In this document: positions 1,245 through 48,510 of the stretch, piece by piece
Position numbering within the stretch: the stretch's first letter is position 1
Layout: the number at the start of each line of letters is the position of its first letter
Assembly (NCBI GenBank): GCA_951406725.2
Contig: OX597817.1
Location: 48,608,001-48,672,000 of the forward strand
Length of the DNA: 64,000 bases
Source: Octopus vulgaris
Lineage: Eukaryota
Direction of reading: 5' to 3'
Position numbers and translations under genes: made by a program
The notes under the pieces: generated by a model
The model's input: the letters and a program-made list of their open reading frames with translations, nothing else
The model's database searches: none
What the model was told of the DNA's origin: nothing

Positions 1245-1515
1245 ATGCCCACTGAGCGGAATTTCCCGAAGATCTTCTTCATCGCAGGTCTTACTGGGAC
1301 CTTTCTAGCAGGACTGTTCAAACTGATTTGTTTTTCTAGTTCACACTGGATCGATCGACATGAAGGTGGTGATCCAAATTTCATTAGTGCAGGTTTATGG
1401 GAAGTATGTTATGATGGTTATAAAAGACCGGACTCTATGAGTGGCCAAAACTACAAAGGATGTTACTGGGTATTTTCAGACGAAGTAAGAGCTCTCCGGG
1501 ATATTATATTGCCAT
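1245..1515 (+). CDS. Claudin-superfamily (Sinuous/Kune-like) gene, first coding exon variant A: N-terminus, TM1 and ECL1
   Basis: ATG at 1245 in gccATG context. Translation has a hydrophobic TM1, then FSSSHW...AGLWEVC-x17-GCYWVF, the claudin W-GLW-C-C signature. Donor CCAT|GTAAGT at 1515/1516, phase 1 (271 nt). Confidence 0.85.
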
Positions 1516-2857
1516 GTAAGTACTTTATAAGCAATTATTTACTGGACATTTTTTGGTATGAAATCATTATCTCCCTTACGTAAACAAGCTTTGAACTTTC
1601 ATTATCGTGGGATGTTCGGTTTATCGCATGACATCTTCCCAAGCTTACAATCTGTTAATTCGTGTTATGTTGACATCGATCTTAAATACCTATTTCTTTA
1701 CTACCTACAAGGAGCTAAACACAGAGAGGACAAACAAGGACAGACAAAGGGATTAAGTCGATTAGATCGAGCTCAGTGCGTAACTGGTACTTAATTTATC
1801 GACCTCGAAATGATGAAAGGCAAAGTCGACCTCGGCGGAATTTGAAATCGATCTTAAATATCGTTGACCCATTCACATTATTCTAACTGTTACTGGCATG
1901 GTATCTGTTTGTGGTCAACAAAAGTATGTATTTGATTCAATTAGAACAAACTTCGATGTCTTTTATTTCGAAACTCACTTTTTAATAATCTTTTCACTTT
2001 CATTAAGAAACCAGAAACCAAACCAATTTTGTCTTCGTTTTAAATTAGCCTCCAAGGGATGGGAGTGTATCCATATCCATTGCAGGTCCTCCCAAGTTGA
2101 TGTTCAACTTGAATTTCTACCTGTTGATGTCTACAGACAAATCATACACGCAGAGAGAATTCTAGCGAGTAATCATTCTAGGGATGTCTTAGCAGTGCCT
2201 CTGGTCAAATTTAATGCATTGGGCCTTGTAGTATTTATTTATTGACAGCAATCAGATTCCTAGGCCTGTGAGATCCCCAGGCAAATCAATGCACTGGGTC
2301 CTATTGTTAGGGCCTGCCTTAGGGTTGCTGGCGCTAGATTAGTTGAACTTCGGCACCCTTACAAGTATAGTTTTTAAAAACTTTCACAAGGAGCAAAATA
2401 GAAAATGTAGACTAAAAAACACATGACACCCTGGGCGACTGCCCGAGTTGCTGGTACCTTGACCTATAGTAGTTATTGATTGACACTAAGTTACAGCATA
2501 CATAGATCAGAATTGGGTCCCTAGGTCTGTGAAACCCTTAGCAATTGCCCTGTGTGCCTGTGTCTTAAGATGGTACTGGGTAAGAGTTTGGATGAAATAC
2601 TTTGTAGGAGAAGCAGGTAAATTTGAAAGAAGACACAGAGGGAGTATGTATTTACTCTTTTACTTGTTTCAGTCATTTGACTGCGGTCATGCTGGAGCAC
2701 CGTCTTTAGGACATTCTTTGTAAGCCTAGTACTTATTCTATCGGTCTCTTTTGCTGAACCGGTAAGTTACGGAGATGTAAACACACCAGCATCGGTTTTC
2801 AAACGATGTTGGGGCGACAAACACAGACACACAAACACACACACACATACCTTTTAT

Positions 2858-2891
<34 letters not shown>

Positions 2892-3815
2892 GACGATGGG
2901 CTTCTTTCAGTTTCCGTCTACCAAATCCACTCACAAGGCTTTGGTCAGTTCGAGGCTACAGTAGAAGATACTTGCCCAAGGTGCCACACAGTGAGACTGA
3001 ACCCAGAACCATGTGTTTGGGAAGCAAGCTACTTTACCACACAGCCGCTCCTGCGCCTACACGCTGGAGTATTACACTGGTAGTGGTTGTAGTGTGTTGA
3101 TGAATGAGGATTTAGCAACCAATTTCAAAGGCATTTTTGTTCAATGCAATTGAGAATAGTCTGATAAGTTTTAGATAATTGAACCATGACTAATGTAATT
3201 CCAGCTTGTTGTGCAATCTGGCAGGTGATACTTATTAGTGGAATATATCGCATGATGGTAAGAAGATGAGGTCTAAAATCTTGGGCAGAGCTCTTTCTTG
3301 GGGAGACATGAAATATTCAAAAGAGTTACAGGATCCCAGTTTATTTATTCTGTAACAATCAGTAACCATTCCATTTCTGGTAACATATTCTGATGTAAGA
3401 CTTTCTTCTTCCTCATGGCATACAATTGTTAGAGCCTATCATAAGGTTGCTGGTGCCAGCATTGAGATGGTTTTGTGAAGAGTTTGCTGGCTGTTTCCTC
3501 TACAAAACTGATAATGCTTCACTGCAGCCAGTAAATTGGAATCATGATACTTTTCTTTAAATAAAACAAAACAGAAAAACTGTAGAATTTGAAGACACTA
3601 GTGATGGATTGAGCTGGCAAATTGTATAAAGAGAGATTTAGGCATGGCTGTGTGGTAAGAAGCTTGCTTCCCAATAACGTGGTTCCAGGTTCAATCCCAC
3701 CGCTTGGCACTTTGGGCAAGTGTCTTTTGCTATAGCCTTCGGCTGACCAAAGCCTTGTGAGTGGATTTGGTAGACGTAAACTGAAAGAAGTCTGTCATAT
3801 ATATCAATTCATTAA

Positions 3816-5778
3816 CACAAGAAGGACCGAGTGAGTCATTTGATGAATTTTGAAATCTTAATTGCTTACAGTTCCAAAACTATTGTAGATTTTGACATCA
3901 TAGTGCTTGAATTTTCATAGTTTTATGATATCTTTAGACACTATAAATTATAGGTTGCTTGCACCAACTGTAAAAAAAAATAATAAACCACTTCCTATAT
4001 GGATCACGTGCGTCAATTAATGGATGCATTGGCAACTTTTGAAAACTTGCACCTGTTTTGGTTAATAAATACATGTGACAATGTTTTAGATATTCAGTAA
4101 CTGCATAGCCTTTACAGCTCACAAAACAAAACTGCAGTTTGGCCAGAGCAGTTCATTACAACAGAAGGGAATTGCCAGAAGCAGTAGAACAGGTGGAACC
4201 AGTGCATGAAACTGGTTTTGAAATCCACAGAAAAGCCCACTGTCTCACTTATATCATACCAGTGTTAAAAATCAAAGTCTGTTGTTGTTGTTTTGAGTAC
4301 CTTGCATCAACATGTAGAAGATTCTTCTGAAAATAACCTCGAAAAAATGCCTGACACCATACTTTTTTTTATAACAAGAATAAGGTAGGCGTAGATGTGA
4401 TTGACCAAATCGCAAAACTTTATTCAGTCAAAGCAAGCAGTAGACAATGGCTAATGCATGTTTTTTTATAATATTTTGGATGTTGCTCTCAAAACAGCTG
4501 CGCAATTCAGTCATCAGTCGATGGGAAGATATTCAAAATGTTGCAAAAGAAATTTGTGGTGATTCACCTCGCGGTTGTTCGTGTACTATCAAATACCCTT
4601 TTGAAGAAAGCTCTACCTCTGGAACTAAAGTCAAATGTATGTGTGTGAAAACAAAATGCTGAAACAGAACCACAGAAATGCATGGAGTCTGTAAAAAAAA
4701 AAAGAATCTATGTATGCAATGTGTGCTAAAATGTTCTGATAGGCGTAGGAGTGGCTGTGTGGTTCGAAGCTTGTTTACCAACCACATGATTCTGGGTTCA
4801 GTCCCACTGCGTGGCACCTTGGGCAAGTGTCTTCTGTTATAGCCTTGGGCTGACCAAAGCCTTGTGAGTGGATTTGGTAGACGGAAACTGAAAGAAGCTC
4901 ATTGTTATATGTACATATATATATATATATGTGTGTGTATGTCTGTGTTTGTCCCCCCAACATCGCTTAACAACCGATGTTGGTGTGTTTACGTCTACGT
5001 AACTTAGCGGTTCGGCAAAAGAGGCCGATAGAATCAGTTCTAGGCTTACAAAGAATAAGTCCTGGGGTCGATTTGCTCAACTACATGCGGTGCTCCAGCA
5101 TGGCCGTAGTCAATTGACTGAAACGAGTAAAAGACTAAAAGAGAGTATGAATGTTTAGAATTTCAATAAATTTCTTTTTATTTTGTGAGGATAGATTTCT
5201 TTCAAAATATCAAACAATTGTGACTAATATCATCGAGAAGCCATAAAATTCAATAGAGTTATACATTTAATAAAGGTTTTCCACTTCTCCTTTTCTTTTT
5301 CTCCTTCATCATCATCATCATCGCTTCTCATGCTGTTATGGGTTGGACAGCTTGACTGAGGACTGGCAAGCCAGAAGGCAGTACCAGGCTCCAATCTGAT
5401 CTGGCAGGCTTTCTACAGCTGGATGCCCTTCCTAACACAAACCACTCCAAGAGTGTAGTAGGTGCTTTTTATGTGCCACCAGCATAGGGGCCAGTCAGGC
5501 GGTACTGGCATTGACCATGCTCAAATGGTGCATTTTATGTGCCACCGACATGGGAGCCATCAAGTGACACTGGAAATGACGACGCTCAAATGGTACTTTT
5601 GACATGCCACCGGCACAGGGGCCAGTCAAGTGACACTGGCAACGACCATGCTCAAATGGTACTTTTTATGTGCCACCAGCACAGGAGCCAGTCAGGCGAC
5701 ACTGGCAGAAAAACATCTTTGCATCAATTGATGCATTCTGGTCCTTAAAGGTAGGTGAAGAATCCAGTCCTGCTAATG
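3816..5778 (+). mobile_element. Internally deleted piggyBac-like element with nested SINE and LINE fragments
   Basis: TTAA flanks at 3812-3815 and 5779-5782, degenerate TIRs (CACAAGAAGGACCG / CATTAGCAGGACTG). 4345-4490 reads KMPDTILFYNKNKVGVDVIDQIAKLYSVKASSRQWLMHVFYNILDVA across frameshifts, followed by a Cys-rich tail near 4630-4740. Confidence 0.7.
5305..5705 (-). mobile_element. RTE LINE 3'-UTR fragment. Other copies near 24886-25573, 26090-26405, 28770-28920, 35595-35865, 38350-38843, 39030-39277, 41927-42184, 42530-42793, 46975-47370, 51385-51780, 55240-55525, 57700-57985
   Basis: Shared GAGTGGTTGGCGTTAGGAAGGGCATCCAGCTGTAGAAAC...CCCATGCTAGCATGGAAA motif and (GAT)n/(CAT)n tail, matching 14900-15078. 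Confidence 0.8.
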
Positions 5779-6449
5779 TTAAGAAGAATTATAAAGCTTT
5801 ACTCGTTAATAAATTAGTTAGACTTACAGTGAAGCCTTTTGTGTATGACACAAGTGTTGATGTTGTCTGGTGTTATTTTGATATTGCCTGAGTCAATTGA
5901 CTGTTGCCATGCTGGAGCACCACCTTGAAGGATTTGTAATTGAATGTATTGACCCCAGTACATTTTTTTTTACAAGCCTGGTACTTATTCTATTGGTTCC
6001 CTTTACTGAACTGCTAAGTTATGAGGATGTAAACACATGGTTGTGGGACACACACACATATGATAGACTTCTTTCAGTTTCCATCTACCGAATCCTCTGA
6101 CAAGGCATTGGTTGACTTGAGGTAATAGGTACCATGGTGTGAGACTGAACCCAGAACCATAGGGTTGCTGGCCTTGTGCCAAAATTTGAAACCAATAATT
6201 ACTAAGTTATTTTATTAAATTCTTCATTATTTTGAAAATTAATTGAAATAAATGCACTGCAAAGAGTTAAATGCTGCTGTCCATCATTTCAGAATATTAA
6301 AAAAATTCTCTGGCAGCTGTATAATGAGGCAAACCCATACCCTCTCCTTAAAGTTCTAACCTTATTCTGATAGTGTGGGTTCACTAGAATTTTTTCTAAC
6401 ATGGTACTGTTTATACTGTTAATTTGTCCATAACCAGTATTGACATGTG

Positions 6450-6748
6450 TGGAGGCACATGGCCTAGTGGCTAGAGCAGCGGACTCACAGTCGAGGGATC
6501 GCGGGTTCGAATCTCAGACCGGGTGATGTGTGTGTTTATGAGCGAAACACCTAAGCTCCACGCGGCTCCGGTAGAAGGTAATGGCAAACTTCTGCTGACT
6601 CTTTCGCCACAACTTTCTCTCATTCTTCCTCCTGCATCTTGCAGCTCACCTGCGATGGACCGGCGTCCCGTCCAGGTGAGGAACCTATACACCAAGGAAA
6701 CTGGCCCTTATGAGCGAGGCCTGGCTCGAGAAGGAACAAACAACAACA
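6450..6748 (+). mobile_element. tRNA-derived SINE family C with (CAA)n tail. Related heads at 52451-52755(+) and 33240-33520(-)
   Basis: TGGCCTAGTGG A-box, GGTTCGAATC B-box and the GAGCGAAACACCTAAGCTCCACG core. Confidence 0.8.
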
Positions 6749-7611
6749 GTATTGCCATCTGTGTAATTTCTTGTGAATTTAAAGTATTCTTTGTCATTAT
6801 TTTGTATAACTGTTTAATTAAGAAGTTAGCTTCCAATTACATGAATTTTGGGTTCAGTGCCATTGTATTGTATCTTGGGCAAGTGTCTTCTACTAAAGTC
6901 CTGGTCCTGGCTGGCTAAAGCTTTGTGAGTAGATTTGGTAGATCATCATCATAATTGTTTAACATTCATTTTTCCATGCTGGCATGGGTTGGTTGAATTG
7001 ACAGGAGCTGATGAGCTAAAAGACTGTGCCAAACTACAATATCTACTTTGGTATGGTTTCTATAGCTGAATGCCCTTCCTGACTTTAATTGTGGCAATGC
7101 TGGAGCACCACCTTTAGTTGAGCAAATCAACCCCAGAGCCTATTCTTTGTAATCCTTGTACTTATTCTATTGGTCTCTTTTGCTGAATTGCTATGTTACA
7201 GGGACGTAAACACACCAGCATTGGTTGTCAAGCAATGTTGGAGGGACAAACAGACACGAAAACATATACACACACATATATATACAGATATATATATAAT
7301 ATACAACAGGTTTCTTCCATTTTCCGTCTACCAAATCCACTCACAAGGCTTTGGTTGGCCCAAGGCTATAGTAGAAGACACTTGCCCAAGGTGCCACACA
7401 GTGGGACTGAACCCAGGACCATGTGGATGGTAAGCAAGCTACTTACCACACAGCCACTCCTGTATACATTTCTTGCCAAATTCTCTTCCCAATGTTTACA
7501 GCGCGGAACTGATCTCACGATCTGAAGCTTCTTCACTCATATCTGTATCCATTTGTATCAATATTATATTTGGAACATCTTAAGGGACGTATGAAACTAC
7601 TTTCTTCTAAC

Positions 7612-7750
7612 AATTCACGTAAGAGTCCGACAGTCCCTATCTGAAAGTTTTGGTTTTCTTCTGGAGTTCTGTTTCAATGAGGTGGTTTTTCCTTCTTTCT
7701 CAAAGGCTGTCATTACTTTCGAGACAGTACCTCTTGATACACCATACTTC
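7612..7750 (-). mobile_element. Fragment of the same Tc1 family (HTH region)
   Basis: YGVSRGTVSKVMTAFEKEGKTTSLKQNSRRKPKLSDRD matches the 9460-9590 region of the Tc1 copy. Confidence 0.8.
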
Positions 7751-9195
7751 TTTTCATCAACTGCCATCACTATTTCAGCCACTATTATCTGCACATTTCT
7801 ATGCAGAATGATTTCTTCCCCTCTTAAGTTCAACATTCTTTCTTGTACTAATATAAATAGTTCCTGCTTAGAGAGAAGAGCCTTCAATAAGGCAGGAATT
7901 TCTTTGTAGACCAACTAGAAATAGCAGCCAAATTTCCTTCTTATAACATCCTAACATCATCCTTTTCAACTCTATACACAAGGCTCGAAATTTTTGGGGA
8001 AGAGTCAGTCAATTAGATCGGCCCTAGTATGCAACTGGTACTTAATTTATCAACCCTGAAAGGATGAAAGGCAAAATTGACCTCAGCGAAATTTGAACTC
8101 AGAACATAAAGAAAGATGAAATACTGCTAAGCATTTCACTCGGCGTGCTAATGTTTCTGCCAGATTGCTGCTTTACATCCTAACATCATCATCAGTATCA
8201 TTGCTTAACATCTACTTTTCCATACTTGACAGAATTTGTAGAAGCAGATTTTCTATGGTCAGATACCTTTCTTGTTACTAAAACCTCACCTGTTTCCAAG
8301 CAAAATAATATTTCCTTGTGGCCAGACATCTATTTTTCTTTAGAAGACTGGAAATGAGCTACATTCTTGTTTACAACCATCCTGTGATGTTAAGGTAAAG
8401 TTACACAAACACACACACACACTTGTTTCTGATGATCAGCTGGTCAACTGAGCCTGATTTTTCTTTTGAATATTTTTTTGAAACATGAAATGAATGTTTG
8501 AAGAAAACATTTATCCTTATGTTCGTTTGTTTAAAAACATTTGTGAACGAGACCTGTAATACTGCCTACTTGAAAATCATGTTTTTGATTTCATTTCTGG
8601 TTCTTGTGGTAATATTATGAACATCTTAAACATTATACAATGCAATTTCATGACTTCACTTGTGTGGTGTTTAATGTAATCTGAGGTCAATTCTGGAGGG
8701 GGGGGGTCAATAAAATAACAGTCAAGCATTAGGATCAATGTATTAACTAACCCCACCCCTTAAACTAGATGTCCTTGTGCTAAAATTTGAAACCAATATA
8801 TAAGATACTAGAAAAGATTAAGGTAGTCCTTCCTGTTTGTTTGTAAGTAGTTAATGTCACACATTTTGCTATAATTGAAGTGCTACCAGTGTATTTTATT
8901 ACACCATACTTCTGTTTCACCTCCATATTGTATCTCACGATGTTTCTAGGTTGTTATGTTTCGTACAACTTGTTCATGTTAAAAGAGGAGAAAAGAGAAA
9001 CTTTGAAAAGAAAATACTTGATGTTATTAAACTGTGGCTGTGTGGTAAGTAGCTTGCTTACCAACCACATGGTTTTAGGTTCAGTCCCACTGCATGGCAC
9101 CTTGGGCAAGTGTCTTCTACTATAGTTTCGGGGTGACCAAAGCCTTGTGAGTGGATTTGGTAGATGGAAACTGAAAGAAGCCCATCACATATATA

Positions 9196-10455
9196 TAGTA
9201 GTTGGACAAAATAATGGAAACACCTAGCATAATAGCATCATAATTTTGAAATATCTATGAAACCATCAAAAGCTTGTTTATTTTTATGTTTTTTTGATTT
9301 ATTATTAGAGTTGCTTAATATGGTTTGTTAAAATTGCTGTTTCTCAGAAAAAGGTAATTAAAATTCATTAAAATGACAGATCTATCAGACTTTCAATGAG
9401 GTCAAATTGTTGTTCCTCGTATGGCAAGTGCTAGCGTAATGAAAACAGCCGAAATGTATGGTGTATCAAGAAGTACTGTCTCGAAAGTAATAACAGCCTT
9501 TGAGAAAGAGGGGAAAACCTCCTTGTCGAAACAGAACTCCAGAAGAAAACCAACACTTTCAGAAAGGGACCGTCGGATTCTTACGTGAATTGTTAGAAAG
9601 GATCACGAAAGTACAGCTCCCAAAATTACTGCAGAGTTTAATGACCACCTTGAGAACTCACTTCCCATAAAAACTGTTCGCTGGGAGCTGCACAAAGCTG
9701 GATTTCATGGGAAGGCTGCAATCAGAAAACCACTACTTTCAAAAACAAACGTTGCAAAGCATTTAGAATGGAGTAAAAACCTACAGAATTGGTCCCTAGA
9801 GCAGTAGAAGAATGATATTTTCTTGGACAAGTCATCCTTTACCCTATTTCTGACCACCGGCCAAATATACGCGTGGAGACAGCCAAAAGATCCATTTGAC
9901 CCAGACTGCCTTCTTCCAACTGTTAAACATGGAGGAGGATCTGTGATGATCTGGTGGGGTATATCTTGGAAATCTGCTGGCCCAATGGTTTCCCTTCATG
10001 GCAGAATTAATAGTCAAGACTATTTAAGCATTCTGTCTGATTTAAATTCATCCTATGATTGTGGAACTGTTTTCGGAGGGAAATGCAATCTTTCAGGATG
10101 ATAATGCACCAATTCACACAGCTAAATTTGTTACTGAATGGCACGAGGAACATTCTAGTGAAGTTAAACATCTTATCTGGCCACCACACTTCCCAGATCT
10201 CAATATTATTGAACATTTATGGTGCATTTTCGAAACACAAGTGATGAGACGATATCCTCCACCATCATCACTACGTGAACTGGAGACTTTTAGCTGAAGA
10301 ATGGACAAAAATTCCTTTGGAAACAATTCAAACTTTGTACAAGTCCATACCTCATAGAACTCAAGCTGTAATTACTGCTAAAGGCAGTCCTACCCCATAT
10401 TAAAATAAATTTGTTTGAAATTTTAAGGTGTTTCCATTATTTTGTCCAACCCCTG
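9196..10455 (+). mobile_element. Full-length decayed Tc1-family (DD34E) transposon inserted in the TA tract of a SINE
   Basis: TIR core GTTGGACAAAATAATGGAAACACCT at both ends, flanked by TA. Transposase pseudogene about 9373-10402 (MTDLSDFQ..., KHGGGSVMIW, FQDDNAPIH, PDLNIIEHLW) with stops and frameshifts. Confidence 0.93.
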
Positions 10456-11493: not shown

Positions 11494-11534
<41 letters not shown>

Positions 11535-18949: not shown

Positions 18950-19255
18950 GTCACTTGTTGAACTACTTGGCTGATTTAGTTACTCACCTGTCCTTACCTG
19001 TAGATAACAAGCATAAACAATATAGTGACTTCAAATATAGGTAGGTAGCCAGCCTGACTGCTTGATCGTTGTCAGTTTCCTGTGTCTCGTCAGAGCAAGC
19101 AGCCAATCGTATATAAGGCGGCCATCAAAGCAATTATATTATATCGACAATAACTTGAGGTTAATTTTCACCTCAGATATATTAAATATATGTAGTATAG
19201 ATCAACGTAGGAACATTTACCTGTCGATAAGAGAGACCTTCGATATTGTTTGAAC
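18950..19255 (+). promoter_or_regulatory. Putative promoter / 5' region of exon B
   Basis: Repeat-free, CpG-retaining region. CACCTG at 18985, TACCTG at 18995, AGATAA, and CCAAT near 19103 followed by TATATAAG near 19111. Confidence 0.5.
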
Positions 19256-19511
19256 ATGTCGAGTTCTCGAATGTTTATATATGGCTTTTCCCTGACCGGT
19301 TTAGCCTTTTTTTTAATGGTTATAGCTTTCTCCAGTCCAAACTGGCTGGAATCTTTCGAACAGGCCAACAATAAATTCGTGAAACTCGGCCTTTGGGAAA
19401 CTTGTTTCAATGATTATACATTTTATCAAGACTACCAAGGTAAACGCTACAAAGGTTGCTGGTATATTTTCTCCTACGAATATAGACCCATCTGGGAGTG
19501 GCTGTCACCTC
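19256..19511 (+). CDS. Claudin-superfamily gene, first coding exon variant B: N-terminus, TM1 and ECL1
   Basis: MSSSRMFIYGFSLTGLAFFLMVIAFSSPNWLES...KLGLWETC-x17-GCWYIFSYEYRPIWEWLSP. Donor CCTC|GTAAGT at 19511/19512, phase 1 (256 nt). Confidence 0.9.
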
Positions 19512-23879: not shown

Positions 23880-26085
23880 TCTATCGAAGTCATCGACTTA
23901 AAACTCAAATCATTTGGTGTTGTCAGTGCAAACTGGATGCACTAAATATGTCCCTGAATAAAAGCCAACATTCCTACTAATAAGTCTCCTGAGATAGGAA
24001 AATCTTTGAGATGCAGAACAAAGATCTCAAACTGGTTGAGAAGGCAACTGAAGTATGGTGGAAAATCTAATTTAAGATGGACAGTCCTGGAAATTGAAAA
24101 CAAAATCAATTTCTTCCAGGCAAATGAAAGAGGAGAGAGAGAGAGAGTAGAGCTGTAGAAAGCATAAAAGCAATCCTAAAGTTTTCTATAAAAGGGAACA
24201 ATACTGTACAAAATAGGACCATTGTTCCAAAGGAATGACTCACTGACCATGGACTTCCAAAGGATAAGTGAAGTGCTCATTGAACAATTAAAAGTCTCTT
24301 CACCTCCTCCATGGAGCACATATGAATAAAAACTGGCTGAATTCTTTAATATTATAGCTCTGCAGATAAGTGGCAACCATCAATTTCATCGACATTGAGG
24401 AGGGAAATGTAACAGTGGCCATTGATAAAATGAGCTTTAGCTCAGCAACTGATCCTGACGGCTTTCCAGCTATTCTCTTGAAGTTATGGAAGTAAGTTTT
24501 AGCAAAACTACTTCAGGTACTTTTACAGAGTTTCCTTGCAAGTGGCAAACTTCCTAAAAGCTAAAATAAGGTATTTTATATGACCTGTTCATAAAGGTGG
24601 GAACTGACTCTAAGAACTACAGGCCCATTTCTCTGACTTCACACATCAGTCATGGAATGAATCGTCGGAAAGAAACCGATAATGTTCCTAGAAGAAAATG
24701 ACACTGAATGATACTCACTTGGCTTCTGTCCGGAAGAAGCTGCCTCACACAGCTTTTATGACTGAGTTTTGAAGTAGCTGCTTGGCTGTTTAAATGTTGA
24801 TGTGATATATCTTGACTTTGCAAAGGCCTTTGAAGAGGTGGACCATGGAATATGTCACAAGCTGCAAGACTTTGGAATAGTGGTGAGAAGACCCGGCAAG
24901 CCAAATGAGACCATAACCTGTAGCCTATGCCAGGAGCATAACCAGCCCACTTATGCACACCTTTTCCTTCTTTGGACACCAAACTTTGCTTCCAAAGACC
25001 TGTTGAGGCAAGTGAAATCAAAATCACACTCGATGACTGGCATCCGTACTAGTGGGGTGCAAAGAGCACCATACAAACGTAATTGTTGACAGAACGGCTA
25101 ACCGGCTTCCGTGCCAGTGGCACATAAAAAGGAACCATTCGAGTGTGATCATTACCAGTGTCGCCTTACTGGCACTTGTGCCCATGCTAGTAGGGTGCCA
25201 AGAGCACCATCCAAGCATGATCGTTGCCGGAGCAGCCAACTGGCTTCCGTGCCAGTGGCACATAAAAGGGTACCATTCGAGTGTGATCGTTACCAACGTC
25301 AGCTTACTGGCACCTTTGCTGGTGGCATGTGTAAAAAGATTTGAGTGAGGTCATTGCCAGTACTGCCAGACTGGTCTCCATGCCGGTGGCACGTAAAAAG
25401 TAACCACTACACTCTCTGAGTGGTTGGCATTAGGAAGGGCATCCATCTGTAGAAACACTGCCAAATCAAGATTGGAGCCTAGTGGAGCCATCTGGTTCGC
25501 CAGCCCTCAGTCAAAATCGTCCAACCCATGCTAGCATGGAAAGCGGACGTTAAACGATGAATGATGATGATGATAGAAAAGTGGTTGTACGACTTCTTAA
25601 AAGACAGTAGTCAGGCAGTTGCAAACAATAGTACCATCTCTGAGGAAACATATATTTCGAGTGTTATTCCCCAGTTAACTGTTTTGGAGCCATTATTGTT
25701 TATAATAGTTCTCTTAAACATGGCCATGGTCACCCAGACATCCACTGACACTAGATATGCTGATGATACAAAATTATCACAGGCAATAAAGAACCTTGAT
25801 GATGCTTTCAGCTTACAGTAAGATCCAAATGCAATATACAAGTAGACTGAAGAGAAAAACATGCAGTTTAATGCTAAAAGATTTCAAGTGCTTTGGTATC
25901 AGCTCACAGATACATCACAGCCTGCATATACAGAACCTGAAGGCACTGCAATCTCAGAGTCACAGACAGTGGGAAACTTGGTGATCAGTATGTGTTACGA
26001 TGCATTATTTCGTATGCACATTATTGAGATTGGTACCAAAGAGCAGACAATTGGCAGGATAGATACAAAGATCCTTCAGGACAAT
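23880..26085 (+). mobile_element. Decayed CR1/L2/Nimb-like LINE reverse transcriptase remnant, interrupted by an RTE 3' piece
   Basis: NYRPISLTSHI near 24615, IYLDFAKAFEEVDHG, VIPQLTVLEPLLF, RYADDTKL and MQFNAKRFQ motifs, with many stops. Confidence 0.8.
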
Positions 26086-28975: not shown

Positions 28976-29128
28976 CATGGTTCATCTCGGTGCAGGTTAT
29001 GATCAGTTTGACATTCCTCTTACAAGGGCTGGTTGCTGTTTTCCTTCTCTGCATGCTCATCCATTGCTGTCCAATCCATGTCAAACCTTTAATTCTCACG
29101 TTATCAAGTATTGTCATGTTTCTCTGTG
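28976..29128 (+). CDS. Claudin-superfamily gene, internal exon (TM2, intracellular loop, start of TM3)
   Basis: Polypyrimidine tract and tacag acceptor ending at 28975. 153 nt, phase 1-1, reads (P/S)WFISVQVMISLTFLLQGLVAVFLLCMLIHCCPIHVKPLILTLSSIVMFLC. Donor G|GTAAGT at 29128/29129. Confidence 0.88.
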
Positions 29129-36649: not shown

Positions 36650-37625
36650 TTCTTCTTTATGCCTTTAACCCTCCAACACGGAGTATAGGCCACTTATAAT
36701 TGAATTCCATGTCGCACAATTTTTGGCTTCTGTACTTATACTCTGCCATGAATGTCCCCCTTTCTCTAGTTCCTTTTGTGTTGATCTCCACCACGAGTTC
36801 TTAGGCCTACCTCTCCTTCTATATCCATCTGGATTCCACTGTAAAGCACTTTTCGCTACATTTGGTGTGTCTTTTCTAATTGCGCTACCAATCCACTTCC
36901 ACTTTTTCTTAAATATTTGCTCCCTAATCGAAACTTCATTTGTTCTTTGCCATAACTCCATATTGCTTATGTATTCGGGCCATCTAATTTTAGGTATACT
37001 ACGCAAGCATCTGTTGATGAATGTTTGTATTTGCTTATTTGACTTACTTACTTGTACTTGTGGCAACATTCACCCTGGGCGGGTTGAGTCGGCTTCTTCT
37101 ACCACTCTCAAGGCATCTCGAACCATGGCAGTGGAAGAAGTTTCATGGGAATATGAATTTCACAAGCAGTCCCCAACAATCCCGCATGTAGAGACATCCT
37201 ATTTGCTGCAGATTGTCTGCAGACACAGGGACAGAACAACTGAGGAGCCACCGGTTGCCGAAACAGACACTCCAAGGATTTTCACGGGTTGTGGCCCTAA
37301 TACCACTCGGTGTCAGACCAATCTGCCTTGGGTGGCTCTACCAGGAACCAAAGTTCCCGATGGCATAGCTCTGACACTACCCGTTGCCAGTGTCCCCACC
37401 ACGGTGAGGAGGGGATGGACTTAACTGTTGTTCGCCATGTCTCAGCCCCATACAATAACACTGCTTTTACGTTAGTGTTAAAAATTCTTATTTTGTTCTT
37501 TATTGAAATTACACTTGCACTCCATACTTTCTTTAACAGGTGAAAAGCGGTCCTTGCCTTACTTATTCTCGTCTTAATATCTTCGTCGGTGCCGCCTGAA
37601 AACGTTATCTCACTACCTAAATACT
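36650..37625 (-). mobile_element. RTE-clade LINE 3' fragment (a different family), interrupted at about 37060-37420
   Basis: YLGSEIT..GGTDEDIKTRISKARTAF...KIRIFNTNVKAVLLYGAETW and QTFINRCLRSI...WKWIG...GYRRRGRPKNSW. Confidence 0.88.
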
Positions 37626-38281
37626 GTTTAATTGCTAAAGGGTTAAATACAGAATATAAAGAATACCATGGTATATTATCATAAAAAAAATTGGGGCTGA
37701 GCAAGTTGAATGTACAATGTGATCATTCTTCAAATACTTACAGTTAATCCCTTATATTCGTTCCTTTGGAGATGAATTATATTAAACTGGTATTCTTGTA
37801 TAGGAATATAAAATGGCAATTACTCTCATAATGGTAATGATGTACACATTCTATAAAAGACTAACAGGATGGTAGTAGATATAGGACATTCTATGGAAGG
37901 ATTCTTATATTTATTATATATGTATTTTTGTGTGTATTTTATTTAAAATGTACATTTAAGAGATAAGTTATGATCGGTTTCTTAAATCTTACAGCAGTGT
38001 GTACTTATATGTGGTACTGGCAATGGCCACGCTCAAATGGTGTTTTTATGTGTCACCTACACAGGAGCCAGTCCAGCAGCACTGGCAACGACCTCATTCA
38101 AATGTTGTTTTTCATGTACCACCAGCACAAGTGCTAGTAAAGCGATGCTGGTAACTATCACACTCGAATGGTGCTTTTTACATTCCACCAGCATGGGGGC
38201 CAGTCAGCAGCCCTGGCGACAATCACACTTGGATGGTGCTCTTAGTGCCCCACCAGCATGGATGGCAGTCATGCGGTGCTG

Positions 38282-38327
<46 letters not shown>

Positions 38328-38893: not shown

Positions 38894-38928
38894 GTTTCTG
38901 ACGAAGAGCTCTGCTCGAAACGTTAAAC
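38894..38928 (+). ncRNA. Minimal type-I hammerhead ribozyme motif (Penelope-like LTR type)
   Basis: GTTT-CTGACGA-A-GAGC-TCT-GCTC-GAAACGTT-AAAC: intact CUGANGA/GAAA core, 4-bp stems I and II, palindromic ACGT helix III. Confidence 0.7.
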
Positions 38929-39272: not shown

Positions 39273-39320
<48 letters not shown>

Positions 39321-39822: not shown

Positions 39823-40395
39823 TAACAAAAGCACTCAGAGAGCACAAACCTTTGTCAAGGCAACATCAACATTCTCCTAACAATTAGTCAGAGATGACTT
39901 TTAAAATGAGAATATCTGGAATAAACTCAACTGTTCTCACAGATGAGAATACAAAAAATGAGCCTGACCTCTCTCAAATATTAATTATTCTATCAGTCTC
40001 TTTTGTTAGACCACTAAGCTATAGGGACGTAAACACACCAATACTGGTTGTCAGTTGGTAGTGGTATACACACACATTCACATGTGCATGCACACACATG
40101 CACACCTACACATACACTGACATACATACACACAATGGGCTTCTTTCAGTTTCCATCTACCAAATTCACTCACAAGGCTTTAGTAAAAAAAAAAAAAAAC
40201 AGAAAAATCATCCAGAATCCTTGTCCGGTAACAGATCGATCCCAAAATCTAATGAGTTCGTGCCAGTCATGAGGCCAAACATCCCTGAAAGTTTCACCCG
40301 AATCCATCCAGCGGTTCTTGAGATATCTTGTCCACGGACAAACAAACAAACACAACTGAAAACAATACCCCTGCTTTCACTAAGGCAGAAGTAAT
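39823..40395. mobile_element. Possible Helentron/HINE-like short element interrupted by a SINE
   Basis: Starts AACAAAAGCACTCAGAGAGCACAAACC and ends ...TAAGGCAGAAGTAA. A SINE-A fragment sits at about 39985-40185. Confidence 0.4.
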
Positions 40396-40741
40396 AATTT
40401 TCACAAGCTGATTGAAGAGTTCTCATCATCTTCTTAATGCCTATCTGTCGAATGTAAATAATGTACATAATTCCTCATCTCTTAAATATAGAATTGAAGA
40501 GTTTAGTCAAACAAACCACCTCACTACTTATTTTTTTAATGCTTGATACTTATTGATTGGTTTCACTGAACTACTAGGTTATGGGGATGTAAGCAAACCA
40601 ACACTGGTTGTCGAGTGATGGTGGTGGATACACACACATATATATATATGAGTTATCATGCAGTTTTGTCCACTAAATTCACTCACAAAGCAGAAGTTGA
40701 ACCTAGAGTTGTAGTTGATGATATATGCCCAAAGTGCTCTA

Positions 40742-41090
40742 CAGGAGGTTGGAAACCCCCTTCGGTCACGAATGACCATGGGGTTGCATCTAGAAAGTTA
40801 CCCCCCCCAGACACAAATCCGGGCAAGCTTGTTTATGGAAGACCAGCAGTTGCCCATGCATACCAGCCACCCCTCTCCACGCTACTGATGTTATCCAACG
40901 GAAGGACAAAGGCTGATAGAGCTTGGTACCAGTGACATCACAACTCATTTCTACAGCTGAGTGAACTGGAGCAACGTGAAATAAAATGTTTTGCTCAAGA
41001 ACACAACACACAGCCTGGTCCGGGATTCGAATTCACAACCTCACGGTCGTAAGATTGATGCTCTAACCACTGAGCCATGTGCCTTCACTG
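40742..41090 (-). mobile_element. tRNA-derived SINE family D inserted in a SINE-A copy
   Basis: Minus strand GGCACATGGCTCAGTGGTTAGAGC...GAATTCGAATCCCGG head, then GTGTTCTTGAGCAAAACATTTTA core. Confidence 0.75.
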
Positions 41091-41839
41091 TACAGGAGGA
41101 CTGAACCTCAAACTGTGTGCTTGCAAAGTGAGCCTCTTTACCAAGTGTAAACTTCTTAACTTGTATCATGTCGAGTCAAACTGTCCTGTTAAAACTGATT
41201 GTTTGTGAGCCCTCTACTGGAATTGGGAGTGAATTTATGTCAGGGCCGCAAGACTAGTCAAACTGCATCAAGGTTCTATGCACACGCATACACGTCCTGT
41301 TGGTTGTAATAATTTTTATGACTATTCAGTTATGCTGGATTTTAAATGCTTTCTGCAGTAATTTTTCTTCTGGTCAGCACTTATTTCATATTTGAGAAAG
41401 AAGAATGAAACTATATAATGAAAATACTTTTCTTAAGTGTATAAAGTGGATTGGTTGGTTCCCACTATGACTCATCCTGCAGTAACCTACTTCTGATAGC
41501 TTACTAATTTACTCCATGATTCAGGACTCTACTTGCTATTTTTATCAGAAATATGCAATTATTGTAAGGTAGATAACTCTCTGTTGTTGTCTGTAAAAGA
41601 GGCTACTCTAGAATTTGAAGCAGAATGACTAGAAGTTTGAAGTTCTTTGTAATTTTTTAAAAAACGCAAAAAAGAAAAGGTTATTTGGTGCATTTTTAGA
41701 TGACGCTTGAGGTGTCACGCAGTGGGATTGAACTTGAAACCTTATAGTAAGGAAGCAAACTTCTTACTCAGCCACACCTGAAATTAATTTGCAGTCATGA
41801 ATCAAGCTGGCATAAACAGTTTAAAATGTGGCACCTTGG

Positions 41840-42377
41840 AGCATATGGCATATTGGTTAAGAGCACGGGCTACTAACCCCACGATTCCGAGTTCGATTCC
41901 AGGCAGTGACCTGAATAATAATAATATGGCACTTGTGCAGGTGACATGTAAAAAAACACGATCTTTTCGTGGCTGTTGCCAGTACCGCCTAACTGGCCCT
42001 TGTGCTGGTGGCACGCAGAAAGCCCCCACTACGCTCTCGGAGTGGTTGGCGTTAAGAAGGGCATCCAGCTGTAGAGACTCTGCCAGATCAAGATTGGAGC
42101 CTGGTGTAGCCATCTGGTTCGCCAGTCCTCAGTCAAATTGTCCAACCCATTCTAGCATGGAAAGCAGACGTTAAATGATGATGAATAATAACAACAACAA
42201 CAACAACAGCAAAAAATACCTTAGGAATGAGAACCCAGGTTCAAAATTTCCCCAAGACACCTGATGAAAGCTGGAGGGTATATCAACCGAAAGGTTGTGT
42301 TAACAACAAACAAGATGACAAATATCTGTAAAATGTAAATAATGTAAATAATTCCTTATCTCTTAAATATAGAACTG
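41840..42377 (+). mobile_element. Third copy of the tRNA-headed hammerhead element, split by an RTE 3' fragment
   Basis: Head at 41843-41915. 3' part at 42184-42377 with GACACCTGATGAAAGCTGGAGGGTATATCAACCGAAAGGTTGTGTT. Confidence 0.8.
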
Positions 42378-42792
42378 TAGTATTTTGTCTGTCTTTACGT
42401 TCTGAGTTCAAATTCTTTTGAAGTTGACTTTGCCTTTTATCCTTTTGGGGCCAATAAATTGTCAGTTGCATACTAGGGTTGATCTAAATGCTGCCAAAAA
42501 AATTTTGGGCCTTGTGTCTTGGGTAGAAAAAGAATATGCCATGCTTGAAAAGACCCATCAGGCCATATGAAATCATACTTGTGGCAGATACTGGTGTTCT
42601 GCAATTGGTACCTATGCTGGTGGCATGTAAATGCACCCATTGCACTCTTGGAATGGTTGGTGTTAGGAAGGGCATCCAGTTGTAGACACCAAACCAAATC
42701 AGTTTGGAGTCTGGTGCAGCCCCTCAGCTTTCCAGTCCTGGTCAAACCATCCAACCCATGCTAGCATGGACAATAGACATTAAATAATGATG

Positions 42793-42832
<40 letters not shown>

Positions 42833-42843
42833 TTATATATATA

Positions 42844-43410
42844 CGAGCAAAATGCCCCCCCCCCCCGTCCAATGGACAGTGCTGAATCATATCTGCTGAA
42901 TAAAAAGCAATCAGTGTTTTCTTTTCATTAAAAAGTAATTAAGCATGCCTTTATTTCAATAAAAGTTTTGGTTTTGTTAAACGAAGTTAAAGCAAAAAAA
43001 AAAAACTTCTTGAGAAACCAAATAGTCTTTCCTTCCTTCATGCCAAGTTTGAAGAAAATATCTCTTTTGCATCTTACCTTTTTGGTCTCTTAAACATACT
43101 GCGTTTTGTGGCATTATTTCAAGCCAGCCGGCTTTTTTTTTTGTGCAAAAAATATGCACGTGCATTTTTCTCTTGTATGCATAGTATCGATCGCAACAGC
43201 TGATGTACTTGCACGTACAAATGCACGTTCTCACAGCTTTATCAATTCTCACCTAGAATCAATTTTTGTAATTTTTTCAAGACTTATACAAGCCTTCATA
43301 ACGGTATGTACATATCAAATTTGAGCGCAATCAGATGGAGGATGTCCAAGATCCTAGAAGACACACACACACACACACACACACAGACAGAACGGATTTT
43401 ATATAATAGA
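42844..43410 (-). mobile_element. Probable non-autonomous Helitron
   Basis: Minus-strand 5' end TCTATTATATAAAATCCGTTCTGTCTGTGTG. The 3' terminus is degenerate. Confidence 0.5.
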
Positions 43411-43753
43411 TATATATATATGTATGCCAACATGAAAAATGGGTGCTAAATGGTGATGATGACATGATGAGTTTCCCACACAGTTTTCCTCTACCAAATG
43501 TACTCACAAGGCATCAGTTGGTTCATAGTTATAGTAGAAGCCACTTGCCTAAGATGCCATACAGTGAGATGGAACCCAAAACTATTTTGTTGCAAAGTGA
43601 GTTACTTAACCATAGAGCCATGCTTGCAGACCAAAATCTGACGAGAGGAAAGTCAGTTTTGTCTATTTGACTTGCAGACCTACTACAGTCTCTTACAGTA
43701 CAAATATGTTATCTTGCCTCTTTTAGCCTTTTAACCAAGACTATAATGGTCTC

Positions 43754-44017
43754 TTCTGTTTTGTCTGGGGAGTCATTTTCTTTTTGTGCCTTATAATTTA
43801 ACACACCGGTAAAATTTCCACTTATTTCTTATTTTTATTCTCCTAAAATTTTCGTTGTGTCTTGGAACCTTTTCAATAGTCTTGACTATTGAGAGGGTTG
43901 CAAGATGCAAGGAAAATTTTAGGAAAATAAAAATAAGAAATAAGTGGAAATTTTACCGGTGAGTGTGTTAAATATTAAGGCACAAAAAGAAAATGGCTCT
44001 CCCCAGACACAACAGAA
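43754..44017. repeat. ~130-bp-arm palindrome (2-nt spacer) of a Penelope-like end with a variant hammerhead
   Basis: Arms are symmetric about CAATAGTC-TT-GACTATTG, centre 43882-43883. Confidence 0.85.
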
Positions 44018-47000
44018 TATACTTCAACACATGAAATCACATAAAGAATCTTGGAAACCAAATCCCAAAACGAAATCTAATGGCCTCTGTTATTTGGATG
44101 CTGGCTGTTCTTGAATCTCCTCTACTTGTCATCTCTCACCCTGGTATCCTAGTTCTTCCTCCCCAGAAGATATGATCCCGGCTCGTACTTTCCTACAGAT
44201 GTGGACTGTGAATATTTATAGCATCAAGCCCATAGGTCATAGAGGATCTGCAAAGGTCATGGCCACTGCTCCTCCTTCCAAACCCAGAAGTAATAAAAAC
44301 AAAAAAAAAAGCTATATTATCTTTTGTCTTGTTTCAGTCATTAGACTGTGAGCATGCTGGGGCATCATATTCAAAAAATTTCGAATGAATCAACTCCAGT
44401 ACATTTTTTTAAGCCTGGTACTTATTGTACTGGCCTCTTTTGCCAAACTACTAAGTTACAGAGATGTAAACAAACTAACACTGGTTGTCAAGTAGTGATG
44501 TGGAACAAACACAGACACACACATATACACATGATGGGCTTCTATCAGATTCATTCATAAGGCTTTGGCCAGTCCAAGGCCATAGCAGTTGCACATACCC
44601 ATGGGGCTACCCAGTATGACTGAACCCAGAACCATTTGGTTGGGAAGGAAGCATCATACCACACAGCCATGCCTGTGCCTATATTGTAGATAATAGGGCA
44701 GCGACCTGGCAGAATCATTAGCATGCTGGGCGAAATACTTAGCGGTATTCCGTCTGCTGCTACGTTCTGAGTTCAAATTCTGCTGAGGTCGACTTTACCT
44801 TTCATCCTTTCGGGTTCAATTAAATAAGTACCAGTTATGCTCTGGGGTCGATGTAATCGACTTAATCTTTTTGTCTGTCCTTGTTTGTCTCCTCTGTGTT
44901 TAGCTGCCTGTGGGCAATAAAGAAATATATATTGTAGATATAAGAAGTGAAGCAAAATTGCTGAGTGGTTGGTGTTTGGAAGGGCATCCAGCTGTAAAAA
45001 CCCTGCCAAAACAGTCACAGAAGTCTGGTGCAGGTTTCTGCCTGGCTGGCTCTTGTGGTACCATCCCACCCATGGTGGCATAGAACACAGACGGTAAATG
45101 ATGATTTGATGTCCTAGAAAATGTTTTTTTTTTCCTAATATTTTCTGGAAAGCCCTTCATTTTTTTTTTCCAGGCTTTTCTAGATTAAAGGCTAAAGTTA
45201 GCTGGTAGAGGTTAATGTGATTAAATGTATGATCTTTTGCAGATGAGGTATCTGAAAGGAAACACTGATACTGAAGCAGGAGAAATGTAATTCTGATAAT
45301 TAAGAATTTATTGAAATGTTTAGGAAATGATCTGGGAACCAAAATTGAATGGGTATAATAATAGGAAGAATGGTGTAGAATGAGGAAGTTTAGAATTTTG
45401 AGAGAACATTGTGAATAGCCTTTCCAGTTAAAGCTATACATTGCCGCTAAAATGCAAAGAACCAAAACACATTCCACAAAGCATTCCTTCCAATGCTTTA
45501 CCAATTCTGCCAATGTTTCACCCTAGACTGGTTCTTTATTTGTCAACCTGCTAAGGATGAAAAGCCAACTTAAATTTAGAGGAATATGAATTGTGAGTAT
45601 AAAGACCTGGAACAAATATCACAAGGCATCCGTCCTGATGCTCTTAGAATTCCACCAATTTGTCACCTTATATAGAATTCACCTCTTTGCTCTTGTGGAC
45701 CTTCCTCATAAGAACCTACCTTCCCTGCTAGCCTGATAATAATCCAGCTGGTGACACACCTGTGCCAGTGACCTGTAACAGGTACCCACTATGCCCTTGG
45801 AGTGGTTGGCCTTTAGCAAGGGAATCCAGCTGTAGAAACCAAACCGGAATCAGAGCAGAGCCTGGTACTGCTCTCCAGTTTACCAGTTCCAGTGAAACCA
45901 TCGAACCCATGCCAACATGGAAAACAGACACTAAATGATGATGATGTAGTTTATACTGGGTACAGAAGATATAATTTCTACTTATTCTGTTTCTTCCTAT
46001 TGACCAATGCCTTTCCTTGATGCCTGTTGTGTTCTCTCTTCTTCCCTACTTAACTAATACTTTAGTCTCTCAGCACCTGACATAAAACCACCTCCCCTTC
46101 CCAAGTACCCCCCATCACTTAATTATGGTGGTTTTTCTTCCTTGTCTTTTTTTTCTGTCTTGTAAGTTATTTGACCTCACTAGTACCAGTGGCACTGAAA
46201 ATAGCACCCAGTACACACTGTAAAACAGTTGGTGTTAGAAAGGGCATCCAGCTTTAGAAACCAATTCCAAAGGTGACATTGAAGCTTAGTGTAGCTCTGT
46301 GGCTTGTAAGATCCTGTCAAACACTCCGACCCATGCCAGCATAGAAAACAGACGTTAAATGAGGACATGCTCTTCTTTCTGCACTGTTAGGTCAATGAAC
46401 GATCTCTACTGCCTTCTTTCCTTAGTGGTCTGTGCTTGCTATGAAATTTTCATATGTCTATACAAAGTTTGTATCTCTATTACTTTCTTTTGGGCTTTTT
46501 TTTTACTGGACACATTCTTGTTGGCTAAACTCAAGCAACTTCATCAAGCAATTCAAAACATTAAGAACCAACATAAATACCACAAAGAAAAACTTTCCCC
46601 CCCCAAGCTGTTAGCTTGTGCCTACACCCACATTTTACGACCAGCTCTCTCTCTCTCTTCTCTCTTAATTCATTTGATTCCCCATGAAGCCATGGGGTGC
46701 CTACAAGAGATCTCCACATTCCTTTATTAACACCCTCTGACCAAAAATGCTGTCTTTGTTTACAATCTTTGGGAAGCAAAAATGTCACAATGTTTCAACT
46801 GTTGATGTGTGAAAAACTAGTGGAATGAAAAAAAAAATACCTTACTTGGAATACATGTAAAGGTTGGTGACAGGAAGAACATCCAGCTTTTGGAAATTTC
46901 TTCAGTGAGCCTTATGTAACTCATGCTAGCATGAAAGAAATGGACATAAAACCAAACAAATAAAATTTCCTCACCATCATCATCATTTAACATCTCTTTT

Positions 47001-48289
47001 CTATGCTAGCATGGGTTGGACGGTTTGACCGGGGTCTGGGAAGCCAGGAGGCTGCACCAGGCTCCAGTCTGATCTGGCAGTGTTTCTACAGGTGGATGCC
47101 CTTCCTAACGCCAATCACTCTGTGAGTGTAGTTGGTGCTTTATACGTGCCACTGGTACAGGGGCCAGAGGAGGCTGGCAACAGCCACAATTGGTTGGTGC
47201 TTTTTACATGCCACCAGCACAGAAGCCAGCCAAGGTGGCACTAGCATCGGCCACGTTCAGATGTTGCTTTTTACGTGCCACCAGCATGGGTATCACAACT
47301 ACAATTTCCGTTTGATTTTTATTCTGATGTTGATGTACTTGACTCAATAGGTCTCCTCAAGCACAGCATGAATACAAATTTATTTCATGAGAGTTAATGC
47401 ATTGTGGCAGTGATTACATGTTTGGTAAAGGCCTTCATTTTAATTGGAGCAGAGAACAGACTGCTCCTGCTACCATCTGCTCACCATGGTTTTAACGTTC
47501 ACTTTTCCATATTATCATGGATTAGAAAGAATTTGTTGAGGCAGATTTTCTATGATGCACTTCCCGTCATCAATTCTCACCTGTTTCCAAGTAAGGTAAT
47601 ATCTTCCCCACAACCAGACATGTCTTTCATGGAAGATTGGAAACAAAGGACCCTGCTTCATTTACAACTATTAAGGAGACAGTAACACACACAAACACCC
47701 AATTTTAACTCTATCTACACGGATACTACAACAAGAATTTGCAGTGCTCTGTTTGTCTTCAGTCAGAATCTACCAAATACTTTCAAAAGGCTTTGGTCGT
47801 GTCTGGGCTATAGTAGAAAACGCCCAAATTGCGATGCGAGTGAAACTGAAACCAAAGACTAAATGGTTGGGAAGCAAACTTTTACCATGCAGCTATGCTT
47901 GCTTCATTGCTTAAATAAAACACTGATGTTTAATTCATTTTGTATGCAAAATCTAAACCTAAGAATAAAGCTTTAATAGCAGACAACTTGAAACAAACAG
48001 AAAATTTGGTGGTGTTTATAAATTACAAAAAACTACAATTAAAACAAAAAACACAAATCTTCAAGTTGCAATATTTAGTTCTGAAGTGGTCGTTGATAAC
48101 AATGAGTAAAGAGATTCATGCTAATTCTTAGTGATTTCTTTGGTAAGAAGTGTGCTATTGTTGTGCCTACTTATCAGTAATTATCCAGAATAGCAAGAAC
48201 AGAATTGATTTGTATTCAAAGATTTCTAAATTTACTAGTGAGTCTTCACAATTTATTTAAATTAATTTTTTTTCTTTTATTTTCAACAG

Positions 48290-48510
48290 GTCTACTAATT
48301 ACAATATCCTTGATTGTGTTTGGAGTGAAGTCTGAAGATCGACAGTGGATGCCACGTCCTGATCAGAACTACTTATCCTGGTCTTTTGGTATTTGTGTAC
48401 TCTCTGGCTTCTTCTCCCTGTTTTCAGCAATGTGCTTGCTTGTGGCAAGCATCAGTTCCTCACGTGACCAGAATGTGGACTCTAAAGCACATCGTATGCG
48501 ACGCTATTAA
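48290..48510 (+). CDS. Claudin-superfamily gene, last coding exon (TM3, ECL2, TM4, C-tail)
   Basis: Acceptor ttttattttcaacag ending at 48289, phase 1. Reads GLLITISLIVFGVKSEDRQWMPRPDQNYLSWSFGICVLSGFFSLFSAMCLLV...RMRRY*. The WMP-x-N-LSWSF motif resembles ECL2/TM4 of arthropod septate-junction claudins. Joined ORFs give 209 aa (with B) or 214 aa (with A). Confidence 0.9.

Follow-up and report, generated by a model that had tools for sequence, protein, structure and literature searches.

The window analysed here, a stretch of 64 kb from Octopus vulgaris with a G+C content of 38%, lies on contig C4 of a 2.8-Gb genome and carries a claudin-superfamily gene in which alternative first coding exons share one set of downstream exons. 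Its coding parts, together with a third first exon found ahead of the window, are the following.

1245 to 1515, plus strand: variable first coding exon A, with the start methionine, the first transmembrane helix (TM1) and a complete first extracellular loop (ECL1); 90 codons plus one base, phase-1 donor
19256 to 19511, plus strand: variable first coding exon B, with the start methionine, TM1 and a complete ECL1; 85 codons plus one base, phase-1 donor
28976 to 29128, plus strand: constant exon 2, 153 bases, encoding TM2, the inner loop and most of TM3
48290 to 48510, plus strand: coding part of constant exon 3, encoding the end of TM3, the second extracellular loop (ECL2), TM4 and a tail ending in RRY, with stop codon TAA
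G000:C4:48602939-48603194, outside the window: variable first exon C, 256 coding bases; 85 codons plus one base, phase-1 GTAAGT donor

The start codons of A and B are the ATGs at 1245 and 19256. GTAAGT donors stand directly after 1515, 19511 and 29128, acceptors with a pyrimidine tract and CAG precede 28976 and 48290, and the 3' untranslated region (UTR) comes after the coding part of exon 3. A first-pass annotation of the window had described A and B as paralogous exons, each with its own ATG, TM1 and complete ECL1, both ending after the same proline with a phase-1 GTAAGT donor and both joined in frame to exons 2 and 3. Our analysis confirmed these points. Translation gave 214 amino acids for the A–exon 2–exon 3 join and 209 for the B–exon 2–exon 3 join, in frame and free of internal stops. 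At the protein level, exons A and B align with 29/79 identities (E 2e-20), and W..GLWExC-x17-C is present in both.

The same annotation had expected further variable exons upstream of the window, and exon C bears this out. A genome search with exon B returned five matches, namely B, A, two on contig C3 and the new exon 5 kb before the window. The ATG of exon C lies 5,061 bases ahead of the window start, and the exon contains its own TM1, a GLWEVC-x15-C loop, and the terminal proline and donor known from A and B. On the contig, the order is C, A, B; all three exons are in tandem, share phase 1 and end at the same proline, with whole-exon identities among them of 31–34%.

Profile searches with exons 1, 2 and 3 covered 314 kb (200 kb upstream, the window and 50 kb downstream) and yielded three first exons, one exon 2 and one exon 3. 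No fourth variable exon was found in the 200 kb upstream, where the best other profile hits had E 0.28 and 0.33, and no second exon 2 or exon 3 in the window, the 200 kb upstream or the 50 kb downstream. The claim of a single constant set for A and B, originally made for the window, hence extends to 314 kb. Genome-wide, exon 3 gave four matches: its own locus, two paralogous genes on contig C3 and a weak match on contig C11 (E 0.51). The claudin-type paralogues on C3 (G000:C3:8426157-8436444 and G000:C3:105279506-105293702) have an intron after ECL1 at the same position. Each is a separate gene with its own last exon and a single first exon in the 70 kb examined, ~50 kb of it upstream. Other Claudin_2-like matches, among 20 matches listed, fell on contigs C23, C28 and C9 (L056-L058, L060, L062 and others). 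For a second close paralogue clade of bivalves and gastropods, no exon was found in the octopus genome searched.

Junctions and conservation

Exon 3 with part of its UTR was present in 20/24 listed public runs. Four of the 24 runs (X1, X3, X8 and X10, from four studies) aligned as contigs to exon 2. In all four, the contigs cover exon 2 only, with zero depth in the flanking introns, and the start of exon 3 was read at their loose ends. The junction of B with exon 2 was read directly in runs X1, X8 and X10, where the last 30 bases of B precede exon 2. In run X3, two contigs end before exon 2 and the loose-end consensus is mixed, with an agreement of 0.73. This consensus equals a letter-by-letter merge of the A and B ends at 30/30 positions, compared with 22/30 and 24/30 for the other pairs. 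In 264 kb searched on both strands, no 30-mer except the A end reproduces it together with the B end. The predicted junction 19511->28976 (B) was hence present in 4/4 runs, three times read directly and once decoded, and 1515->28976 (A) in one of the four, decoded from the mixed consensus.

Runs X1 and X10 contain an extra 31-base contig, consisting of one additional base and 30 bases of exon 2. Such an isolated contig is expected where two paths converge in a 31-mer graph. A and C both end in T, and the contig suggests that both are joined to exon 2 in these runs. The join of C is further supported by RefSeq isoform X3 in two species. Run X8 showed B alone, a hint of differing exon use though no measure of it. 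A processed DNA copy as origin of the junction contigs is unlikely because the genome search with exon 3 gave no second near-identical copy.

For both LOC115211099 of O. sinensis and LOC106876987 of O. bimaculoides, RefSeq lists isoforms X1, X2 and X3. All records are named 'uncharacterized protein', except for one UniRef label 'Claudin'. Isoform B is identical (209/209) to a protein named for O. vulgaris, the A join matches isoform X1 of the O. sinensis locus at 212/214 positions, and the C join matches its isoform X3 at 207/209; proteins of the X1 type, carrying exon A, are P0019, P0084 and P0085. Compared with O. bimaculoides, ECL1 is conserved at 54/56 positions in A, 56/56 in B and 50/51 in C. 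Exon A is thus neither untranscribed, being joined to exon 2 in run X3, nor disrupted in relatives, being intact in O. sinensis and O. bimaculoides and represented by an A-type exon in a cuttlefish-like protein, nor does a second exon 2/3 set for it exist in the 314 kb; these were the doubts that the first-pass annotation had raised about it.

The cuttlefish-like protein (P0022, unnamed) combines an A-type exon, 52–53% identical overall and 32/56 in ECL1, with a constant region that is 98–99% identical to a named Sepia pharaonis protein and 99–100% identical to unnamed B-type cluster members. Because its A-type exon sits on a cuttlefish-type constant region, a two-exon form with A-type and B-type exons likely predates the split of octopus and cuttlefish. 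ECL1 identity to cuttlefish-type proteins is 57% for A and 89% for B, and no C-type exon outside Octopus turned up in the protein searches made. A survey of 219 proteins, each having a single loop and a single constant part, yielded 33 pairs in which nearly the same constant part follows different first exons; the constant regions of all these pairs are of octopus, argonaut or cuttlefish type. The protein collections are clustered and miss isoforms, so that the survey is weak evidence of absence in other taxa.

Some further protein records deserve mention. Unnamed P0266 has a cuttlefish-type A exon that runs into unrelated sequence past the exon border, perhaps through a cryptic splice. Relatives from horseshoe crabs (P0052/P0093) and Haliotis rubra (P0124) are named 'isoform X2', and their X1 forms could differ in the first exon. 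In Dreissena polymorpha, LOC127857169 (P0051, P0088-P0092) has six isoforms with a common first exon and small changes in the constant part, including ECL2, which may reflect near-identical duplicated 3' exons or merged copies.

We regard as established the exons and their common phase, the presence of just one constant set, the joins of B and A, and the conservation in three Octopus species. For the variable-first-exon design taken by itself, we consider serious doubt hardly warranted.

Protein family and likely function

All three isoforms pass the Pfam Claudin_2 cut-off of 29.1 bits (A 72.3, B 76.9, C 66.1). PMP22_Claudin (PF00822) scores of 23.5 for A and 23.7 for B do not reach its cut-off of 26.7, and none is listed for C; weak matches to L_HMGIC_fpl and Clc-like also occur. 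The W-GLW-C-C signature of ECL1 is found in A, B and C with cysteine spacings of 17, 17 and 15, longer than the 8–10 given for C. elegans (PMC3879130). A predicted model of isoform B (predicted local distance difference test, pLDDT, 94.4; predicted template modelling score, pTM, 0.87) has four long helices (2–26, 86–113, 119–150 and 167–208) and an ECL1 beta-sheet, with strands within 31–70 and a short helix at 74–83. As the variable exon ends at residue 85 and TM2 starts at 86, exon choice would exchange TM1 and the ECL1 sheet with its helix, while TM2 to TM4, ECL2 and the tail would remain constant.

The closest named insect relatives are of Kune-kune type. Identity to a moth protein named Kune-kune is 31–32% over about 180–190 residues (pairwise E 1e-25 to 3e-26); septate junctions count Kune, Sinu and Pickel among their core components (PMC8006247). 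From this similarity, a septate-junction role of the octopus proteins is likely.

We hence propose one gene of the claudin superfamily whose three first coding exons, C, A and B, lie in tandem. A and B are spliced to exons 2 and 3, and C likely joins the same two exons. Each first exon would probably be driven by its own promoter and used in a tissue- or stage-specific manner. The products would be three four-helix membrane proteins that have membrane core and tail in common and are told apart by TM1 and the outer loop, all presumably located at septate junctions. There, the swapped loop might alter binding to neighbours in the same membrane or junction complex, rather than paracellular pore charge. 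To this whole chain, up to a tissue- or stage-dependent exchange of the face that would select partners within the protein's own membrane or complex, we assign a probability of about 0.62.

Several points weigh against it. The public runs carry no tissue label and none is recorded as RNA, so that the four used here are presumed RNA, and their contigs show presence only, neither transcript starts nor levels. The C–exon 2 join was not read directly in the four runs aligned to exon 2. RefSeq isoform entries are automated models whose underlying evidence we have not seen, and the O. vulgaris records bear names taken over from O. sinensis; since these records could go back to the very genome analysed here, they are not independent. 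Orthology to Kune, Sinu or Pickel is left unresolved at the deep nodes of trees that lacked Drosophila reference sequences. The promoter motif described below was picked after looking at the regions, and the CAGGTA words before A can also be read as donors of a UTR intron with an acceptor-like site ending at 1188. Finally, when the family profile is compared with solved structures, TARP gamma-7 (E 1e-4), LIM2 (6e-4) and gamma-1 (1.5e-3) come out on top, and claudin-18 reaches only 0.065; the isoform B sequence itself had no PDB match at E up to 1.

With TARP and LIM2 chains leading these weak structural matches, the strongest competing reading is a channel-auxiliary role. TARP ECL1 contacts AMPA receptors. 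With the same gene structure, the proteins could be TARP-, LIM2- or LHFPL-like auxiliary subunits of channels or receptors, with the swapped TM1 and ECL1 tuning gating or trafficking. The profile ranking, in which TARP gamma-2 also stands ahead of claudin-18, and the weak L_HMGIC_fpl and Clc-like matches fit such a role. However, the structure matches are weak and in part confined to residues 4–53, and the insect Kune-kune-type proteins are far closer. We therefore regard auxiliary subunits as improbable, although they deserve more attention than the other rival readings of the gene's function and layout.

The first-pass annotation had suggested, by analogy with vertebrates, that exon choice sets pore charge selectivity and trans-interaction, but little speaks for this. 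Vertebrate claudins do set charge selectivity in the swapped region (PMC6862131, PMC3879130), and the ECL1 loops of A, B and C are only 34–37% identical to each other, which would suit claudin-10a/b-like pores differing in charge selectivity or trans-binding. Positive and negative residues in ECL1 number 6/9 in A, 6/7 in B and 6/5 in C. With net charges, a crude measure of pore selectivity, that span only −3, −1 and +1, no switch like that of claudin-10a is apparent, which has seven positive and one negative residue (PMC6862131). Moreover, the cuttlefish-type A exon reads 7/6, so that the net charge of A is not conserved. Septate clefts are 10–20 nm wide without kissing points (PMC3879130), and the loops of septate claudins are argued to be too small for the cleft, a size that 'would likely preclude' trans adhesion (PMC8006247). 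Differential pores are thus doubtful at best. An N-glycosylation sequon is present in ECL1 of C only.

Upstream motifs and origin of the variable exons

Within the window, the sequences ahead of A and B contain three candidate regulatory features.

1000 to 1014, plus strand: two CAGGTA words at −245 and −236 relative to the ATG of A, oriented opposite to the words before B and C; candidate promoter element
18985 to 19000, plus strand: CACCTG and TACCTG words as a pair, at −271 and −261 relative to the ATG of B; putative regulatory element
19103 to 19116, plus strand: CCAAT box at −153 and TATATAA box at −146 relative to the ATG of B; candidate core promoter by consensus match only

Exon C has paired YACCTG words at −227/−217 from its ATG, so that a pair of words 9–10 bases apart stands 217–271 bases before all three ATGs. 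Such pairs occur four times in 264 kb of C4 and twice in 190 kb elsewhere. No tandem 5-mer except ACCTG is common to all three upstream regions, and a shared tandem 5-mer of whatever sequence was seen in 3/3000 random triples. The pair matches the bipartite E-box/Z-box bound by vertebrate ZEB1 (PMC3979034). The excerpt of PMC6055758 offers no support for the motif, its sole CAGGTA match being a primer. A Grainyhead-like motif was absent from all five upstream regions scanned, and a scan for sigma-70 promoters was set aside as irrelevant to animal DNA. The shared motif and the TATA box of B would fit a separate promoter for each exon.

Alternatively, C, A and B could be mutually exclusive internal exons behind one shared upstream non-coding exon and promoter, with the choice made by splicing. 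An acceptor-like pyrimidine tract with CAG, which ends at 1188 and thus 56 bases before the ATG of A, would agree with this. The CCAAT and TATATAA boxes upstream of B argue against it, as does the presence of the paired motif before all three exons, which for B and C lies on the strand unable to act as donor. The donor-like sites at 1000–1014 would make the 1188 acceptor part of a short UTR intron. A shared promoter therefore appears unlikely, about as much so as charge-selective pores. Least tenable is the idea that A and C are orphan or pseudo-exons or parts of separate paralogous genes: the faster evolution of A and C relative to B and the read-through in P0266 would fit, but open frames, conserved donors and 96–98% ECL1 identity across Octopus species speak against it. 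Together with the join of A seen in run X3, the isoforms recorded for two species and the lack of other 3' exons nearby, they largely refute it for A and leave it next to no credit overall.

Exon B is about 55–66% identical to full-length first exons of bivalve and gastropod orthologues, whereas A and C reach 20–37% with non-cephalopod proteins. In trees, B and the constant exons both group with the same molluscan clade, and B therefore reads as the native, slowly evolving exon, conserved across molluscs. A and C fall into a clade with the cuttlefish-type exon (100/97) and appear as a fast-evolving pair. In approximately unbiased (AU) tests, a single clade of A, C and B was rejected (p-AU 0.011 with a mixture model, 0.032 with LG). 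Holding A and C with the other molluscan paralogue (clade 1) gave p-AU 0.041 (mixture) and 0.084 (LG), and holding them with all molluscan rows gave 0.077, at which rejection was not reached. In a larger tree, A and C group with the second unit of a tandem model from a chiton (82/86). The test trees left out the two C3 paralogues, Capitella, Macrostomum, P0071 and the third P0096 unit; all exon-1 trees left out the partial second P0096 unit, and the larger trees seven near-redundant or long rows, one of them also isoform duplicates. As these trees have long branches on 85–88 columns, the exons may have arisen either by duplication of B with rapid divergence afterwards or by capture of an exon from a neighbouring gene.

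The phase-1 intron at the border of ECL1 and TM2 looks old in the family. Of 36 proteins matching only the exon-1 profile, 28 read P-[RCGS]-[KE] at the border, as expected from read-through of a phase-1 donor, about a dozen being near-copies. With such an old intron in place, swapping of first exons would be cheap to evolve. The chiton model (P0120, Liolophura sinensis LOC135463362) fuses two complete claudins in tandem, of which unit 1 is B-type and unit 2 groups weakly with A and C. In the annelid Owenia fusiformis, protein model P0121 (CAH1776236.1) has two ECL1 units in a row before one constant region; these may be two alternative first exons strung together by a gene finder. P0096 (551 amino acids) was rejected as a fused octopus model, being an insect-type fusion of three complete units.

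We may speculate that A and C go back to an older claudin gene next to that of B, of which the chiton retains a complete version. In a cephalopod ancestor, this gene would have lost its own 3' exons, and its first exon would have been rewired onto the constant exons of B. Each exon would have a paired Z/E-box promoter, and the design would be recurrent (CLDN10, CLDN18, perhaps Owenia). Rejection of the single clade, the grouping with chiton unit 2 and the two-loop Owenia model speak for such a capture. Against it stand the long branches, weak support and the chiton order, with the B-type unit first, unlike the octopus order; moreover, the chiton and Owenia cases are known as protein models alone. 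We therefore hold the capture to be a tentative and rather unlikely origin. If true, first-loop swapping would be a recurrent route to diversify cell seals.

The remainder of the window comprises spacer, transposon remnants in the introns and downstream, with DDE_3, Mos1-type HTH_48, weak RVT_1 and DUF6451 matches, and a repeat.

1 to 999, plus strand: tail of the 6-kb spacer after exon C
10046 to 10294, plus strand: transposon remnant
25561 to 25818, plus strand: transposon remnant
37300 to 37722, minus strand: transposon remnant
56727 to 57335, minus strand: transposon remnant
about 62650 to 63100: long simple trinucleotide repeat (TAT/TAC-type), a source of spurious open frames

Known systems and meaning

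In human CLDN10, alternative first exons swap TM1 and 'most of' ECL1 on a shared remainder (PMC6862131), and the CLDN18.1/18.2 isoforms arise from lung and stomach promoters (PMC11178514). The octopus gene likewise exchanges TM1 and ECL1 on a common remainder. In contrast to the two major exons of these genes, it has three, swaps the whole ECL1 and shows no opposite charges. Its protein is of Claudin_2/Kune type and below the PMP22_Claudin cut-off, from which a separate origin is likely; the gene would hence represent the claudin-10/18 design evolved independently.

The vertebrate GCNT2, UGT1 and clustered protocadherin loci are also built from first exons that lie in tandem, are paralogous to one another and, being in the same phase, are spliced to a shared constant set. 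GCNT2 combines three variable exons with two constant ones, and in UGT1 a conserved motif precedes each exon (PMC1885805). The octopus array differs from these loci in being small, with divergent exons (31–34%) and promoters that are here predicted to be separate. The first-pass annotation had called the design protocadherin-like. This holds for the exon layout, but with three exons in 314 kb there is no sign of a large array, unlike the dozen or more variable exons of clustered protocadherins, and the stochastic single-cell choice of the latter is not part of the likeness. With Drosophila Kune-kune, Sinuous and Megatrachea/Pickel, the octopus proteins share four helices, the W-GLW-C-C loop and an ECL2 motif. 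However, the Drosophila septate claudins are three separate genes, sinuous being reported with one isoform (PMC2172325), whereas the octopus gene makes three loop types on one 3' exon set.

A full-text literature search found no paper joining claudin, alternative first exon and septate junction, and none with the identifiers of this locus or its proteins; supplements, such as cephalopod isoform tables, or subscription papers could mention the gene. Nor is it described in the excerpts of PMC12487505 and PMC3387010. The gene is apparently undescribed in papers, although all three isoforms are already in automated annotation. What is new is thus the recognition of the design, its conservation and the shared upstream motif, not the sequences themselves.

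Septate junctions seem to be too wide for claudin–claudin contact (PMC8006247), which raises the question of what the first loop does in invertebrate, septate-type claudins. Three natural proteins that differ only in TM1 and outer loop provide a ready-made swap experiment. The exon design of claudin-10a/b and 18.1/18.2 likely arose again in cephalopods, whose brain barriers are a topic of interest (PMC12487505). Judging from the sequences, alternative loops likely let different tissues build cell seals with different outer surfaces.

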